Positions 21,642 through 58,429 of a stretch of 64,000 nucleotides of DNA are shown here, in pieces. Under the pieces are notes generated by a model. That model did not search any database and was not told the origin of the DNA. It was given only the letters and a program-made list of their open reading frames with translations. Positions within the stretch are counted from its first letter, which is position 1, and the number at the start of each line of letters is the position of its first letter. Position numbers and translations under genes: made by a program. The DNA is taken from the NCBI GenBank assembly GCA_035281625.1, contig DATEDO010000105.1, positions 102-64,101 on the forward strand. Reading direction: 5' to 3'. Source of the stretch: Candidatus Methylomirabilota bacterium (GTDB taxonomy: Bacteria; Methylomirabilota; Methylomirabilia; Rokubacteriales; CSP1-6).

Positions 21642-22073
21642 TCAGTCGCCCTTCGGCACCCGCTTGGCCAGCACGCTCGCCAGGGCCTCCGGCTTGAAGC
21701 CGATCTGCAGGAGCGCGACGCCCACGTCCGCGTACTCGCGGTAGGCGCTGATCTTGCCGCCCTCCAGGTCGAACACGCTCATGCCCTTGAAGGAAACCGG
21801 GCGGCCGGCGCTGCGCGGGATGGCGTCGGACACCGTGTAGCGGAAGCGCCACTCGCCGGCGGCGCGGCGACCGTCCTCCACCACGGTGTCGAAGCGCCAC
21901 TCGTACCCCCGGCCCTCGCGGAACATGCGCTCGAACATCTCGCGCAGGGCCTCGCGGCCCTTGTGGGGCCCGAAGAAGATGTCGTCGTAGGTGCCGTTCT
22001 CGGTGAAGAGACCTACGAGCCCCTTCACGTCGTTACGGTTGAAGGCGTCGGTGAAGCGATGGACGATGCTCAT
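21642..22073 (-). CDS. SnoaL/NTF2-like fold protein
   Basis: FTDAFNRNDVKGLVGLFTENGTY... pattern. ATGA overlap with the upstream gene. Confidence 0.8.
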   Translation of the reverse strand: MSIVHRFTDAFNRNDVKGLVGLFTENGTYDDIFFGPHKGREALREMFERMFREGRGYEWRFDTVVEDGRRAAGEWRFRYTVSDAIPRSAGRPVSFKGMSVFDLEGGKISAYREYADVGVALLQIGFKPEALASVLAKRVPKGD

Positions 22074-22552
22074 GGCGTTTCCTCCAGGAGACGGGGCACC
22101 ACCTTCTCCAGACAGCGGGCGATCTCGTCCCGGCAGTAGCGGAACGCCTCTTCTCCCTGCCCCGCCGGATCCTCGATGTCGCCCCGCTCACCGGCCCATT
22201 CCCGAAGCGTCACCATGGGCCGGCCGGCCGCCTCGCCGAAGGCGGCCAGCATCTCCTTCTGCCGCCCCGTCATCGTGACGATGAGGTCGGCCTCGGCGAT
22301 GAGATAGCGGTGTCGCTTCAGGTCGATGGAGGTCATGTCGTCCTCGGCGAGGTGGACGCCGATCTCCTTCAGGGCCAGCCGCGCGTCCAGCGAGGGCAGC
22401 ATCCCGTCGCGCGCATACGCGGCGATGCCGCCGGAGCGGATCCGGAAGCCGTCCCCGGCGTCGCGGTCGGCCAGCATCTTCTCCAGCAGGACCTGCGCGA
22501 TCACGCTGCGGGCGGTGTTGGCGTGGCAGACCACCAGGACATTCTTCCTCAT
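22070..22552 (-). CDS. Low-molecular-weight protein tyrosine phosphatase
   Basis: VLVVCHANTARS (CX5R(S/T) P-loop) and a DP general-acid motif (IEDPAG). Start ATG 22552 overlaps the upstream stop. Confidence 0.88.
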   Translation of the reverse strand: MRKNVLVVCHANTARSVIAQVLLEKMLADRDAGDGFRIRSGGIAAYARDGMLPSLDARLALKEIGVHLAEDDMTSIDLKRHRYLIAEADLIVTMTGRQKEMLAAFGEAAGRPMVTLREWAGERGDIEDPAGQGEEAFRYCRDEIARCLEKVVPRLLEETP

Positions 22553-23631
22553 CCCTCGGAGCGGGCTCCGGTGTCGGCGAGGGGGCGGTAGTAGGGATTC
22601 CCCTTCGCCGCCCACTCCTGGCGCATGGCGCGAAACTCGGGACCCATGGGATCGGCGCCGCGCATCGGCATGGTCCCCCGCCGGATGGTGAAATCGTGCG
22701 GCGCCAGCTCGCCGCCGCGCGCGAAGTGCCGCGCCGCCGCCTCCGGCTTGCCCGCGCGGTACAGCCACTCGCCGAGCCCGAACTCCGCCCGCGCCTGCTG
22801 ATCGGCATCGCTCGGCAGGGGCTGGAGCGCGCGGGCGGAGAGTCCGGCGGGCAGCGCCGCCGCCTCGCCCTTCACCCAGGCGCGCAGGGCGGTCAGATGC
22901 CGCGCCGACTCGAGCCCGGTAATGTGCTTGAAGGTGTCCGTGCCGAAGGCGACGTCGTTGGGCCGGACGATGCGGCCCGCCTCGTCGATCCAGAACACGG
23001 TGGGGACGTTCACGATGTTGTAGAGATCGGCGAGGCGATGCTCGGTATCCACCAGCGCGGGATGCATCGCCTCCGGACGGCTGGGCTTGGCGGCCTCGAT
23101 CCAGGGCCGCGCGTCCTCCGCGCTCTTGTCCAGCGCCACCGTGATCACGGCGAAGCCGCGGCTGCCCAGCTCCTCGTGGACGGCCTGCCAGACCGGCAGG
23201 TCGAGACGGCAGCCTCACCACGAGGCGTGCGCGACGAGCAGCACCTTCTTGCCGCGATGGTCGCGGAGCGAGTGCCGGCGCCCGGCGAGATCGGGCAGCG
23301 TGAAGTCCGGCGCCTCCAGCGCGGCGAGCGGACGCGCGCGCTCCGCCGCCGCCACGCCGAGGAAGGCGGCGCGCTCCGCCACGTCGACGGCCAGCGGACG
23401 GCCCAGCGCGGTGGCCACCCCGGCCAGATCGACCCCGTCGGCGGATTCCACCGGCGCCCCGCGCACGGGCACGCACATCGCGTCACGGCACAAGCCCTCC
23501 GGCTTGAGCGCCCACCCGATCGCGCGCTCGAGGGCCTCCCGGGAGAGGCGCACCGCGCCGTCGCGTACCCGCGCCGGCACCGCGGTCGGCCGGCCATCGT
23601 CGATGATCGTGAACGTCGCGTCGTCGGCCAT
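22549..23631 (-). CDS. Thioredoxin-fold (TlpA/ResA-like redoxin) protein with in-frame TGA at the active-site position: selenoprotein candidate
   Basis: Track ORFs 23215..23925 and 22549..23148 share a frame and are split only by TGA 23215-23217. Read-through gives KKVLLVAHASW-U-GCRLDLPVWQAVHEELGSRGFAVITVALD. AGGAG RBS precedes ATG 23631. Confidence 0.7.
23184..23200 (-). other. Putative bacterial SECIS-like hairpin downstream of UGA 23215-23217
   Basis: The RNA CCUGCC-GGUCU-GGCAGG has a 6-bp stem and a G-rich 5-nt loop. The stem begins 14 nt after the UGA and the loop about 20 nt after it. Confidence 0.5.
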
Positions 23632-23657
23632 CGGCCTCGCTCCTCGCTGGAATTCCC

Positions 23658-24290
23658 TCAGCGCCACGCCCACACGGGCTGCTCGAAATGATACACGCGG
23701 GTGGGGCGCCCGTGGATCACGACCTCGTGCGTCTGATACACCACCGCCGCGGTGGGCGCGTGGACCAGGGTGTCCAGGATGGGAAGCTGGATGACCGGTC
23801 GATCGCTCTCCGGGATGGCCACCAGGCGCGGCACGTCGGGCCGCTCCAGCTCGTCGAAGGCCACGAGGTGCACGCTCGCCACCTCGGCGGGATTCGGCGC
23901 GAGCGCCGCCGCGGGGCCGCCCCACACCACCACCGGCGTGATGAGGAAGCCGGACCGGGTCCCGTAGTCGTCGAGGGTCCCCAGCACCGCGTCGCCCTCG
24001 ACGCGGAGGCCCACCTCCTCGCGTAGCTCGCGCAACGCCGCGTCCACCGCGCTCTCACCGCGGTCGAGGCGGCCGCCGGGCAGCGCCCACTGCCGCGCGT
24101 GCGCGCGCAGGCCGGCGGCGCGGCGGGTGATGAGAAAGCACGCGCGCCCGGCATCGTCGGGCATGAGCACCACCGCCACCGCGGCGGGCCGGAGGCCGTC
24201 GGCGGAGGCGTGGCGCCGGTCGAACCCCGCGAGGTGCTGCCGCGCGCGCTCGCGAAGCGCGTCCTCGAAGCGGTGCGGGGCGGCGGACAT
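23658..24290 (-). CDS. NUDIX hydrolase (CoA pyrophosphatase-like)
   Basis: Nudix box GGRLDRGESAVDAALRELREEVGL. Start is either 24290 or 24305. Confidence 0.88.
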   Translation of the reverse strand: MSAAPHRFEDALRERARQHLAGFDRRHASADGLRPAAVAVVLMPDDAGRACFLITRRAAGLRAHARQWALPGGRLDRGESAVDAALRELREEVGLRVEGDAVLGTLDDYGTRSGFLITPVVVWGGPAAALAPNPAEVASVHLVAFDELERPDVPRLVAIPESDRPVIQLPILDTLVHAPTAAVVYQTHEVVIHGRPTRVYHFEQPVWAWR

Positions 24291-24331
24291 ACCCCTGCAC
24301 GACACCCCATCTCGGGAGTAGTGTCAAGCTC

Positions 24332-53980: not shown

Positions 53981-55300
53981 TCACTTCCCCATCAGGGCGT
54001 TCGGCAGCCAGGTGGCGAGCGGCGGCGCCACCGCCACCAGCCCCAGCATCACGAGCCCCAGGATCACGTACGGCGTGACCGCCCAGAACACCTGCCGCAT
54101 GGTGATCGAGCGCGGGGCGACGCTCTTCATGGTGAAGAGAAGCATGCCGAAGGGCGGCGTGAGGAGCCCGAGCTGCATGCACATGAGGTACAGCACGCCG
54201 AACCAGATGGGATCGAAGCGGTAGGTTTCGACCAGCGGCATGAAGAACGGCAACGTGATGAGCATCATGCTCACCTGGTCGACGAAGCAGCCGAGGACGA
54301 GCAGGATCAGCATCATCACCGTCATGACCATGAAGGGGCTGAAGTTGGCCTCCTGCACCGCCGCCACCAGCCCATTGGTGGCGCCCGAGAAGGTGAGGAT
54401 CTGCGAGAAGGTGGTCGCCCCCACGATGATGAACAGGATGACGCCGGAGATCGCCGCCGTCCCCATCAGCGCCTTCATGAGCCCGTTCCAGGTGAGGGCG
54501 CGGTAACCCGCCGCCATCACCACCGTCGCCACCGCGCCGACCGCGGCGGACTCGGTCGGCGTCGCCCAGCCCGCCGCCATCGCAAGCACGACGACCACGA
54601 AGATCACCACCAGGGGGAAGACGTACACGACGAGCGGCCGCCAGCGGGCCCAGCCGCGCACGGGGTCGTGCTCGAACGGCGGGGCCAGGCCCGGGTTCAT
54701 CGCGGTGCGCACCACGATGTAGCCCACGAACGACGCGGCGAGGAGCGCGCCGGGGACGATCCCGGCGAGGAGAAGACGCGAGATCGAGATGTTGGCGAGG
54801 CTGCCCAGCAGCACGGTGAGCGCCGAGGGCGGGATCAGCATGTCCACGCCGCCGATGGCGATGATGGGGCCCATCGCCATGGCGGGCTGATAACCCCGGC
54901 GCAGCATCTCGGGGAGCATGAGGCTGCCGAGCAGCGCGGTGGTTGCGATGGTGGAGCCGGAGATGGCCGAGAACACCGTGCCCGCGACCACCGCCACCAC
55001 CGACAGCCGGCCAGGCACGCGCGCGATGAGACGGTCGATGGCGTCGATGGCCTTCATGGCCACGCCGGTATGGAACAGCACTTCCCCCATCAGCACGAAG
55101 AACGGGATCGGCGTGAGCGAGAAGCTCGCGATCGACGCCACGCCGTTGCGGATCATCTGCACCAGCCCGGCGTCCTTGCCGAGCCACACCCAGGCGCCCA
55201 CCACGTTGATGCCGAGGAACGCGAAGGCGGCGGGCAGGGCCGCGGCGAGCAGCACCGAAAGAATGCCGAACAGCACGGTCGCGGCCAACCACCAGACCAT
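53981..55300 (-). CDS. dctM: TRAP transporter large permease
   Basis: 439 aa, polytopic. Start trimmed to ATG 55300. Confidence 0.9.
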   Translation of the reverse strand: MVWWLAATVLFGILSVLLAAALPAAFAFLGINVVGAWVWLGKDAGLVQMIRNGVASIASFSLTPIPFFVLMGEVLFHTGVAMKAIDAIDRLIARVPGRLSVVAVVAGTVFSAISGSTIATTALLGSLMLPEMLRRGYQPAMAMGPIIAIGGVDMLIPPSALTVLLGSLANISISRLLLAGIVPGALLAASFVGYIVVRTAMNPGLAPPFEHDPVRGWARWRPLVVYVFPLVVIFVVVVLAMAAGWATPTESAAVGAVATVVMAAGYRALTWNGLMKALMGTAAISGVILFIIVGATTFSQILTFSGATNGLVAAVQEANFSPFMVMTVMMLILLVLGCFVDQVSMMLITLPFFMPLVETYRFDPIWFGVLYLMCMQLGLLTPPFGMLLFTMKSVAPRSITMRQVFWAVTPYVILGLVMLGLVAVAPPLATWLPNALMGK

Positions 55301-55314
55301 GGGCGGGCGCGGCC

Positions 55315-55809
55315 CTAGGCGTGCGGGCCGCGGCCGGCGAGCGCGCCGCCGCGCACCAAGCGGCGCACGAACTCGACGGCGAGGAAGGCGAAGCACAGGG
55401 GGACGGGCGCGTAGAGCCACCACTCGGGGAAGACCACCGACTTGATCACCATCGAGCTCTGCTGGGCCGAGCTGACCACCGCCCGCCACCCGTAGATCAC
55501 GAAGATCACGGACACCGCCAGCCCCACCCCGTCCGAGAGGCGCTCGAGCGCGCGGGCCGCCTTCACGGGGATGGCGGTGAGGAGCACGTCGAGCCGCACG
55601 TGCTCGTTGCGATAGAGCAGCCAGGGGGCTACGAGGAAGGTGGCGAGGGGCAGCCCGTACTCCGACACTTCGAGGATCCAGGGCAGCGTGCCGACGCCGA
55701 GATTGCGCGCGACGACGTCGCCGGTCACGAGGAGGGCGAGCAGACCGAGCAGCAGCGCGGCCACCACCGCGCCCGCGCGGAGCAGCCGTCCGTAGGCGCG
55801 CTCGAGCAT
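55315..55809 (-). CDS. dctQ: TRAP transporter small permease
   Basis: 164 aa with 4 TM helices, located between the DctP and DctM genes. Confidence 0.88.
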   Translation of the reverse strand: MLERAYGRLLRAGAVVAALLLGLLALLVTGDVVARNLGVGTLPWILEVSEYGLPLATFLVAPWLLYRNEHVRLDVLLTAIPVKAARALERLSDGVGLAVSVIFVIYGWRAVVSSAQQSSMVIKSVVFPEWWLYAPVPLCFAFLAVEFVRRLVRGGALAGRGPHA

Positions 55810-55816
55810 CCGCGCG

Positions 55817-57901
<2,085 letters not shown>

Positions 57902-57905
<4 letters not shown>

Positions 57906-58429
57906 CGCGTCAGCGCTTTCACGACCACGTCGACGACGAGATCGGCCTTCTTGATGGCCTCGTCCTCCGGAATGCCGCCCAGGGGATGGGGAACGAGCGC
58001 GAGCGGCAGGTCAGCCATGCCGCGATTCTTCGACTCGAGCGTGGCGAGCTGCTCGAACTCGTTGGTCCCGAGGACGACGGACGGGACGCCCTTCTGCTCC
58101 AGCACGATGGCGCCGTGGATACTCCACGACGTGCACGACCCTCAGTCGGCGCTGCCGACCAGGGCGACGTCGCACGTCGTGAGCGCCTCCAGGATCGTGG
58201 GCGACGGCGCCCCCGCGATACCCTTCTCGCGCTTCACGACCTCGCCCGCTCCGTAGCGCTCCTGCAGCCGCCGCGCCACCGCGAGCATGAGCGTCCCCGC
58301 ATTGGCCTTGCTGTTGTCGAGGATGGCGATCCGCTTCCCCGCCAGGCTGTCCACCCGCTTGGCGAGCCCCGCCGCCAGGATCTTCGGCTCGGCGGTGGGG
58401 TCGTACAGGGTCACGTCCTTGCCGCTCAT
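57902..58429 (-). CDS. U-G-S-C motif protein with in-frame TGA: selenoprotein candidate (175 codons)
   Basis: Track ORFs 58142..58429 and 57902..58105 share a frame and are split only by TGA 58142-58144. Read-through gives VALVGSAD-U-GSCTSWSIHGAIVLEQKGVPSVV...LVPHPLGG. GGGAGGAG RBS precedes ATG 58429. Confidence 0.7.
58111..58131 (-). other. Putative bacterial SECIS-like hairpin downstream of UGA 58142-58144
   Basis: The RNA CGUCGUGGA-GUA-UCCACGGCG forms a 9-bp stem including one G.U pair. The stem starts 10 nt after the UGA, and the GU-containing loop is about 20 nt downstream. Confidence 0.5.

Follow-up and report, generated by a model that had tools for sequence, protein, structure and literature searches.

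Selenocysteine (Sec)-containing redoxins with a U-G-C active-site motif were predicted from ocean metagenomes and described as the 'Prx-like (UGC-containing)' family in the Global Ocean Sampling (GOS) selenoproteome of 2008 (Zhang & Gladyshev, PMC2398784). In Table 2 of that work, the family is listed under pfam00578 with the motif UGC, 46 Sec sequences, and 855 cysteine (Cys) homologues, and it was more abundant in non-marine samples (PMC2398784). A review of 2026 also lists the family, with the fold cd02966 and MDE0950781.1 as its exemplar. In the published accounts of the family, no domain architecture, selenocysteine insertion sequence (SECIS), or taxonomy was found, and a literature search for the term 'WAxxUGC' returned no paper. 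In this study, we analyzed a gene of this type in a 64,000-nt stretch of DNA from a Candidatus Methylomirabilota bacterium (assembly GCA_035281625.1, contig DATEDO010000105.1, positions 102 to 64,101), which is called the window in the following. The gene, termed UGC redoxin here, lies on the reverse strand and very probably encodes a 360-residue cytoplasmic selenoprotein, a UGC-containing Prx-like/TlpA-like redoxin in which UGA codon 139 is decoded as Sec by means of a hairpin. The existence of the family and its Sec usage are already known, and the gene adds a member. New here are the breadth of the clade (at least 580 species genomes), the systematically split gene calls, the evidence for a SECIS from synonymous sites, and the three-domain architecture. 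The gene also provides a clean example of UGA-to-selenocysteine decoding from an uncultured soil and groundwater lineage (Rokubacteria/Methylomirabilota).

The window protein has an AhpC-TSA/TlpA-like fold, a U-G-C motif with Sec in first position, and homology to published members, and by these sequence features it is assigned to the UGC-containing Prx-like/TlpA-like selenoprotein family. In BLASTP comparisons, it aligned with the GOS read JCVI_READ_1110824 (43% over 242 amino acids, E 2e-66) with U placed on U; this read contains LLVAFSSWUGCAFDLPGWQ...DFTIVRASMPLRGGDPFG. A second read, JCVI_READ_1095901167516, includes LAVCRDDLCIPL and WASWUGC and aligned with 32% over 282 amino acids (E 1e-33), including the N-terminal C-x4-C segment, which some GOS reads thus share with the window protein. 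Common to both groups are the flank SW-U-GC-x-x-DLP-x-WQ and the C-terminal signature DFTI(R/V)R..MP.RG.DP. The published GOS members are short marine or aquatic reads, whereas the copy in the window belongs to a genome of soil/groundwater-type Rokubacteria/Methylomirabilota with 71.5% G+C.

The best NCBIfam model was NF041054 ('WAxxUGC_long', ResA-like WAxxUGC motif-containing protein), an equivalog model of 354 positions, which is similar in overall length and covers the N-terminal and redoxin domains. With U replaced by C, the window protein reached E 1.5e-72 and 244.9 bits, below the cut-off of 300 bits. Ten other members of the clade, from seven phyla, scored 231-281 bits and the partial GOS reads also stayed below the cut-off; the matches of the clade relatives were mostly limited to profile positions 5-205, and the C-terminal domain diverges. 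At the W-A-x-x-U-G-C motif, the window protein has H-A-S-W-U-G-C, while many relatives have W-A-S-W-U-G-C or Y-A-S-W-U-G-C. Judged by these scores, the UGC redoxin would be a close homologue or sister clade of NF041054 and not a member by the NCBI rule. Since the clade falls below the cut-off, the NCBI pipeline does not name its genes as selenoproteins, and in many public records the gene is called as two fragments or as a truncated 'thioredoxin family protein'. A lower cut-off for NF041054 or a sister model would correct many annotations.

The in-frame TGA and its recurrence in homologues

The gene and the two codons of its predicted redox center are located as follows:

22549..23631, (-) strand: UGC redoxin selenoprotein gene, predicted by translation and co-linear with Cys homologues of 344-351 amino acids
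23215..23217, (-) strand: predicted selenocysteine codon 139 (TGA), aligned with the first Cys, the nucleophile, of the active site in the thioredoxin fold
23209..23211, (-) strand: Cys141 codon TGC, presumed resolving Cys, invariant in 86 of 86 family sequences

The start codon ATG of the UGC redoxin is at 23631-23629 and the terminal stop codon TGA at 22551-22549. The otherwise open frame of 361 codons (23631..22549) is interrupted by a single in-frame TGA at 23217-23215, which is codon 139, and the product comprises 360 codons including Sec139, arranged in three domains and beginning with MADDATFTIIDDGR. The center reads ASW-U-G-C-R, with TGA-GGC-TGC at 23217..23209. The original prediction had joined the open reading frames (ORFs) 23215..23925 and 22549..23148 by read-through, and both the ORF list and the translation agree that they form one frame with no stop between them except the TGA. 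The read-through peptide quoted there was reproduced exactly on retranslation: KKVLLVAHASW-[TGA]-GCRLDLPVWQAVHEELGSRGF, or in a longer version DHRGKKVLLVAHASW-[TGA]-GCRLDLPVWQAVHEELGSRGFAVITVALD. On either side of the TGA, the G+C content at third codon positions (GC3) is 0.93-0.97, which fits one continuous gene. No signal peptide or membrane segment was found at the N-terminus, and the protein is predicted to be cytoplasmic, unlike ResA and TlpA.

For the detection of homologues, 5.8 billion proteins were searched with the read-through sequence. Full-length homologues of 344-351 amino acids were obtained with 48-60% identity and 95-98% query coverage. A larger second set of matches comprised proteins of 199-213 amino acids, which were 70-92% identical and covered the part after the TGA only; such C-terminal fragments made up about 99 of the 120 best matches. 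Every one of the full-length homologues carries ASW-C-G-C-R, and in the alignment the TGA column is that of the first Cys. The replacement of the first active-site Cys by Sec, as proposed originally, is thus matched by Cys in the same column of the homologues. The U-x-C spacing with a single Gly was likewise found to be real, with C-G-C present in all 21 full-length Cys homologues examined. C-G-C is common to the whole family, which marks the one-residue spacer as a family trait and rules out that CGPC was turned into C-G-C/TGA by a deletion of 3 nt or an artefact of sequencing.

In addition, loci were scanned in one genome per GTDB species. At least 580 stretches encode a relative, and the best 80 loci were used, in 79 of which the motif was located, giving 85 gene copies. 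TGA stands at the position of codon 139 in 81 of these copies and TGC or TGT in four. When the two halves were searched separately with tblastn, both were in frame in all 80 loci, with an identity of 43-80% before and 53-87% after the TGA. Among the Sec forms, the Cys141 codon is TGC in 78 and TGT in three. The record titles of the best 80 loci name Rokubacteria/Methylomirabilota, Binatia, Chloroflexota (Dehalococcoidia, Tepidiformaceae), Myxococcota/'Deltaproteobacteria', Planctomycetia (Planctomycetota), Alpha- and Gammaproteobacteria, and Dormibacterota, at least eight phyla in all. The nearest loci, with 80-83% amino-acid identity and the same neighboring genes, are metagenome-assembled genomes (MAGs) of Methylomirabilota/Rokubacteria.

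A HMMER search of 1.84 billion cluster representatives with the N-terminal 100 residues yielded 445 matches. Of the best 150, 63 end exactly at ...SW, which is explained by gene calls halted at the UGA, nine read through a Cys codon, and the remainder are contig-end or otherwise broken pieces. The ratio of Sec to Cys forms is therefore 81:4 among the loci and 63:9 among the cluster representatives, and the clade of the UGC redoxin is abundant, overwhelmingly Sec-type, and very widespread in soil and groundwater phyla.

If the TGA were instead a true stop, the locus would be a pseudogene, would owe the TGA to faulty sequencing or assembly, or would hold two genes encoding proteins of 138 and about 200 amino acids. 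Public automatic annotation does call fragments of 199-213 and 135-141 amino acids. A split of this kind would cut the thioredoxin fold through its active site, whereas the Cys homologues are single continuous proteins and GC3 is of the coding type on both flanks. The TGA recurs in independent assemblies, in 81 gene copies from at least eight phyla, and the codons after it are highly conserved. This recurrence and the conservation of both halves in frame rule out all three possibilities, and we assign hardly any probability to a true stop.

Two tandem UGC redoxin paralogues, about 1.1 kb apart and both with TGA and hairpin, are present in six loci of Tepidiformaceae/Dehalococcoidia (L058, L062, L071, L072, L073, L080). 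Locus L002 (DASRWT010000029.1), labelled 'Candidatus Nitrosocosmicus sp.', an archaeon, holds a copy of 80% identity whose four neighboring genes match those of the Rokubacteria window, and L057 (CAMAVY010000027.1) holds a copy in a MAG labelled 'Klebsiella pneumoniae'; both contigs look mis-binned.

The coding-region hairpin and decoding of the UGA

Downstream of the TGA, the following element is present:

23184..23200, (-) strand: SECIS-like hairpin CCUGCC-GGUCU-GGCAGG with a 6-bp stem and a 5-nt loop (23194..23190)

The hairpin begins 14 nt past the UGA and overlaps the codons for D-L-P-V-W-Q. Folded alone, it has a free energy of -10.0 kcal/mol (z = -3.27 against dinucleotide shuffles). 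The published bacterial SECIS (bSECIS) model comprises a loop of 3-9 nt, a stem of 4-16 bp, a distance of 16-37 nt from UGA to loop, a G within loop positions 1-2 with, in most cases, G or U after it, and an energy of at most -7.5 kcal/mol (PMC13188914). With a loop of 5 nt, a stem of 6 bp, G-G-U at the loop start, a distance of 20 nt, and -10.0 kcal/mol, the hairpin agrees with this model in all four respects, and its predicted coordinates and position relative to the UGA hold. Like the bSECIS elements, among them that of Escherichia coli fdhF, it lies in the coding region just 3' of the UGA and has a small apical loop starting with G-G-U. The loop of the fdhF SECIS is GGUC and resembles that in the window. 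The stem in the window is shorter (5-6 bp), and a conserved lower helix as in the bSECIS consensus and fdhF is missing. Binding of SelB to the element is putative.

For comparative analysis, the 48 nt from the UGA onward were aligned for 82 Sec-type copies. All 82 have the five inner pairs (CUGCC/GGCAG), and most also have the sixth, a C-G pair. The loop is GGUCU in 56 copies, CGUGU in 16, AGGUU in five, CGGGU in three, and GGUGU and AGUCU in one each, with G at position 2 and U at position 5 invariant. The clearest signal came from synonymous sites. At the stem Leu, the 81 Sec copies use CTG (79) or TTG (two) and never CTC, whereas elsewhere in these genes Leu is most often encoded by CTC (48%; 1258 CTC vs 1034 CTG). 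Codons compatible with pairing, CTG or TTG, thus account for 81 of 81 in the stem and for about 45% of the Leu codons outside it. This constraint on synonymous sites appears to be stronger evidence for selection at the RNA level than covariation. Compensatory changes were seen as well: where TTG replaces CTG, CAA replaces CAG, and where GAT replaces GAC, an A is found on the 3' side; the pair is preserved in both.

The Sec and Cys forms also differ in this region. In Sec forms, the loop codon is Val (GUN) or Gly (GGN) only, so that the loop G is retained, whereas the 21 Cys forms use Ala, Ser, Gln, Gly, or Val there, mostly one of the first three. For the stem, Cys-form DNA was extended from the four copies of the loci by six further ones (n = 10). 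All 82 Sec forms have an intact 5-bp core, compared with seven of ten Cys forms (Fisher p of about 0.001, the sequences not being phylogenetically independent), and at stem positions Cys forms have codons never seen in Sec forms, e.g. CTC, CTT, GGT, and GAG. In one Cys form from a Logan assembly (L082:706-753), CTG is changed to CTT and CAG to GAG (Gln to Glu), and five pairs are still possible via a U-G wobble; this single case may reflect either a role of the hairpin beyond Sec insertion or coincidence.

Several results weigh against a selenoprotein gene with a SECIS hairpin. Covariation is sparse, with two pairs and three cells changed on both sides, because the stem also encodes the conserved peptide L-P-x-W-Q. 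The stem is retained in seven of the ten Cys forms. Rfam gave no SECIS or other credible family, neither for the whole window at gathering thresholds nor for 23100-23300 at E<=10. In the 64-kb window, selA, selB, and selD were not found by Pfam among the 20 largest ORFs, and tRNA scans detected no tRNA-Sec there or in 60 related loci. No experimental or biochemical work on any family member was found in the literature, and comparative data by themselves fall short of proving SECIS function.

Some of these points would also fit a real Sec gene in which the 17-nt hairpin is a by-product of the peptide D-L-P-V-W-Q and the functional SECIS is a different or larger structure. Minimal covariation, the hairpins kept by Cys forms, and the missing Rfam match are in line with this, as are longer folds of 48 and 68 nt, whose stability did not exceed that of shuffles (z -0.45 and -0.05). 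A by-product would not account for CTG/TTG in 81 of 81 stems where about 45% is expected, nor for a loop G that is invariant only in Sec forms and a stem that decays only in Cys forms. Moreover, RNAalifold predicted no conserved lower stem or alternative helix, and both position and loop match the bSECIS model. We therefore regard a by-product as quite improbable.

A scan of the window, based on composition, for in-frame TGA codons with coding-type sequence on both sides gave four sites, namely two ordinary gene junctions, the redoxin TGA, and a TGA at 58144..58142, which belongs to a second candidate gene:

57902..58429, (-) strand: UGSC-family selenoprotein gene, matched by NF041046, with predicted Sec codon TGA 58144..58142

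Its read-through sequence is VALVGSAD-U-GSC-TSWSIHG, and with U replaced by C it matched the NCBIfam model NF041046 'UGSC family (seleno)protein' with E 1.6e-35 and 122.2 bits (cut-off 125). Thirteen nt after the UGA, a hairpin with the loop GUA starts, which has 9 bp in a 48-nt fold and a 6-bp core of -6.5 kcal/mol when folded alone (z -3.9). Since two unrelated selenoprotein genes occur within 64 kb, the source organism very probably decodes UGA as Sec. As an ordinary stop, TGA is also used more often than the other codons in the window (30 of 50 crude ORFs) and is therefore not reassigned across the genome. The UGSC gene adjoins TRAP-transporter genes (DctP 55820-56944, DctM 53984-55816).

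Translation of the UGA in another way, either through a tRNA(Cys)-like UCA suppressor that inserts Cys or through near-cognate read-through, was also considered. Recoding of UGA as Cys of the selC* type has been described in some uncultured bacteria. Such decoding would be compatible with the Sec machinery not being found in the window (the tRNA scan detected no tRNA gene at all there) and with Cys being functional at the site in natural homologues. Against it stand the independent UGSC-family gene, which also has an in-frame UGA and a hairpin, the fit of the redoxin hairpin to the SelB-type bSECIS model, the publication of the family as a selenoprotein family, and the large selenoproteomes reported in the phylum, including a Methylomirabilota MAG with 63 predicted selenoprotein genes (PMC13188914). 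Decoding other than by Sec is accordingly given a very low probability. Taken together, the original observation was confirmed as a genuine selenocysteine redoxin gene with a SECIS-type hairpin. Its UGA139 would be decoded by Sec-tRNA(Sec)/SelB, recruited by the C-CUGCC-GGUCU-GGCAG-G hairpin.

Protein domains and proposed catalytic cycle

The three domains of the protein are encoded as follows:

23332..23631, (-) strand: N-terminal alpha/beta domain, residues 1-100, with a predicted local distance difference test (pLDDT) of 91 by AlphaFold
22948..23316, (-) strand: Redoxin/AhpC-TSA thioredoxin-fold domain, residues 106-228, from PF00578, PF08534, PDB, and the model
22582..22935, (-) strand: C-terminal all-helical TPR-like domain, residues 233-350, from the model, with the motif D-F-T-I-R-R-x-x-M-P

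For residues 106-228, Pfam gave AhpC-TSA (PF00578, E 6.7e-17, 62 bits with a cut-off of 26) and Redoxin (PF08534, E 1.9e-10). A profile search of PDB sequences was led by DsbE, ResA, StoA, and TlpA, and to fit C-G-C to these relatives HMMER opens a one-residue gap in their C-G-P-C. As a stand-in for the window protein, an AlphaFold model of the 59%-identical Cys homologue P0002 was used (mean pLDDT 92.8, predicted template modeling score 0.90). Compared with the PDB by Foldseek, it matched domains of the ResA/DsbE type with a target-normalised TM-score of about 0.8. Pfam, the PDB profile search, and AlphaFold/Foldseek thus all agree with the TlpA/ResA/redoxin layout recognized originally. In the model, C138-G139-C140 lies between the strand 128-134 and the helix 139-157, and this C-G-C site corresponds in position to the nucleophilic Cys of ResA. 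From about residue 229, the model consists of helices only; weak matches were obtained to TPR_2 and TPR_12 near residues 275-313 of the window protein in Pfam and to consensus TPR proteins at 257-304 in the PDB profile search. The two additional domains noted before exist as well, with sizes of about 100 and 125 residues instead of about 85 and 110.

In 86 family sequences, S137, W138, G140, C141, R142, D144, L145, P146, W148, and Q149 are invariant near the Sec center. N208-V209-P210-T211 (23010..22999) is also invariant and probably forms the cis-Pro loop of the thioredoxin fold. In the C-terminal domain, residues 301-320 reach a conservation of 0.88 with an invariant D-F-T-I-R-R-x-x-M-P. 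A 5-residue insert (SRPEAM) of the window protein is common only to its closest relatives in the alignment.

The N-terminal domain contains Cys48 and Cys53 in GLCRDAMCVPV (nucleotides 23490..23473; family form GLCRxxxCVPV). This pair is present in 71 of the 86 sequences and missing from the other 15, which belong to a Rokubacteria subclade. In this subclade (L019, L020, L025, L026, L030, L032, L033, L036, L037, L039, L048, L052), the N-terminal domain is shorter by about 45 residues and both Cys are among those deleted, with TGA, hairpin, and the remaining protein kept, so the pair is not essential for core catalysis. By HMMER among the cluster representatives, the N-terminal domain occurs essentially only in the UGC redoxin family. 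A fold search of the PDB with this domain gave nothing at E<1e-3, the best hit being the N-domain of FimD (E 0.086). Two giant repeat proteins, P0133 (2508 amino acids) and P0216 (1408 amino acids), matched residues 5-89 in multiple stretches; these were judged to be summed weak matches of no significance and were rejected as homologues, P0216 consisting of Big_13 Ig-like repeats.

If ResA/TlpA and the thioredoxin-fold proteins that contain Sec are taken as a guide, Sec139, located where helix alpha-1 begins, would act as the nucleophile. It may attack an oxidised substrate such as a disulfide, a mixed disulfide, or a sulfenic acid or peroxide. Cys141, one residue closer than in CxxC, would then resolve the intermediate to a strained Sec-Gly-Cys selenenylsulfide. 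Thioredoxin could reduce this bond again, as might the Cys48/Cys53 pair of the protein itself. Binding of a partner or substrate is probably the role of the helical C-terminal domain.

Gene neighborhood and comparison with known redox proteins

The genes directly adjoining the UGC redoxin are:

23658..24305, (-) strand: NUDIX hydrolase, upstream, most like CoA pyrophosphatase (NF007980, E 5.5e-19, below cut-off)
22070..22552, (-) strand: low-molecular-weight (LMW) phosphatase/ArsC-like gene, downstream, with weak matches of the ArsC-thioredoxin type and to LMW-PTP

Together with a SnoaL/ketosteroid-isomerase-like gene, they form a same-strand cluster of four genes at 21642-24305 (-) in the order NUDIX, UGC redoxin, LMW-phosphatase/ArsC-like, and SnoaL-like. 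The end of the NUDIX gene is separated from the ATG of the redoxin by 26 nt. The redoxin stop and the LMW-phosphatase start overlap in ATGA (22549-22552), and a second ATGA overlap (22070-22073) connects the LMW-phosphatase/ArsC-like gene to the SnoaL-like gene. The LMW-phosphatase/ArsC-like protein has the C-X5-R motif CHANTARS. The full cluster is kept only in the closest relatives L001-L004. Among the 80 loci, the NUDIX neighbor is kept in 32 and the LMW-phosphatase in 34, all labelled Rokubacteria/Methylomirabilota except L002; as the neighbors are confined to this group, they are weak evidence for function.

A further proposal assigns functions to all three domains as a selenium relay, in which Cys48-x4-Cys53 would re-reduce Sec139-Gly-Cys141 and the protein would act on mixed disulfides of LMW thiols, linked to the neighboring genes. 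The transfer from Cys48/53 to Sec139 is likened to that from CVNVGC to GCUG in mammalian thioredoxin reductase, and the action on mixed disulfides to CGC-motif bacilliredoxins. Bacilliredoxins reduce mixed disulfides with a low-molecular-weight thiol. If the relay were true, a link to the co-transcribed CoA-pyrophosphatase-like NUDIX and ArsC/LMW-phosphatase-like genes would be possible in Rokubacteria; as it stands, we consider the relay unlikely. A family with a U-x-C center, a putative SECIS doubling as a peptide motif, and an N-terminal domain unmatched in the PDB is a reasonable target for biochemistry.

Among well-described proteins, ResA, TlpA, and DsbE (CcmG) share with the window protein the thioredoxin fold with the same inserts and an active site at the junction of strand and helix. 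Their C-x-x-C-R/K-x-E-x-P corresponds to U-G-C-R-x-D-L-P here, with an acidic residue and a Pro in both, and the V-P-T segment would match their cis-Pro loop. ResA, TlpA, and CcmG are membrane-anchored, periplasmic single-domain proteins with CxxC and without Sec, whereas the window protein has no anchor or signal peptide, a U-x-C center that is one residue shorter, and two extra domains, so they are relatives in fold only.

In the spacing of the center, the protein resembles the CGC tripeptide, the CGC variant of thioredoxin, and YphP/bacilliredoxin, which have a C-G-C-type center in or derived from the thioredoxin fold, as here, but come from unrelated families and lack Sec. For such CxC centers, potentials of -167 mV (CGC peptide), -200 mV (thioredoxin CGC variant), and -130 mV (YphP) have been reported, which are more oxidising than that of thioredoxin (PMC3173608). 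By analogy, this suggests that the U-G-C center is less reducing and more prone to exchange, and its tuning may favor exchange or isomerase-type reactions, or mixed disulfides, over strong reduction.

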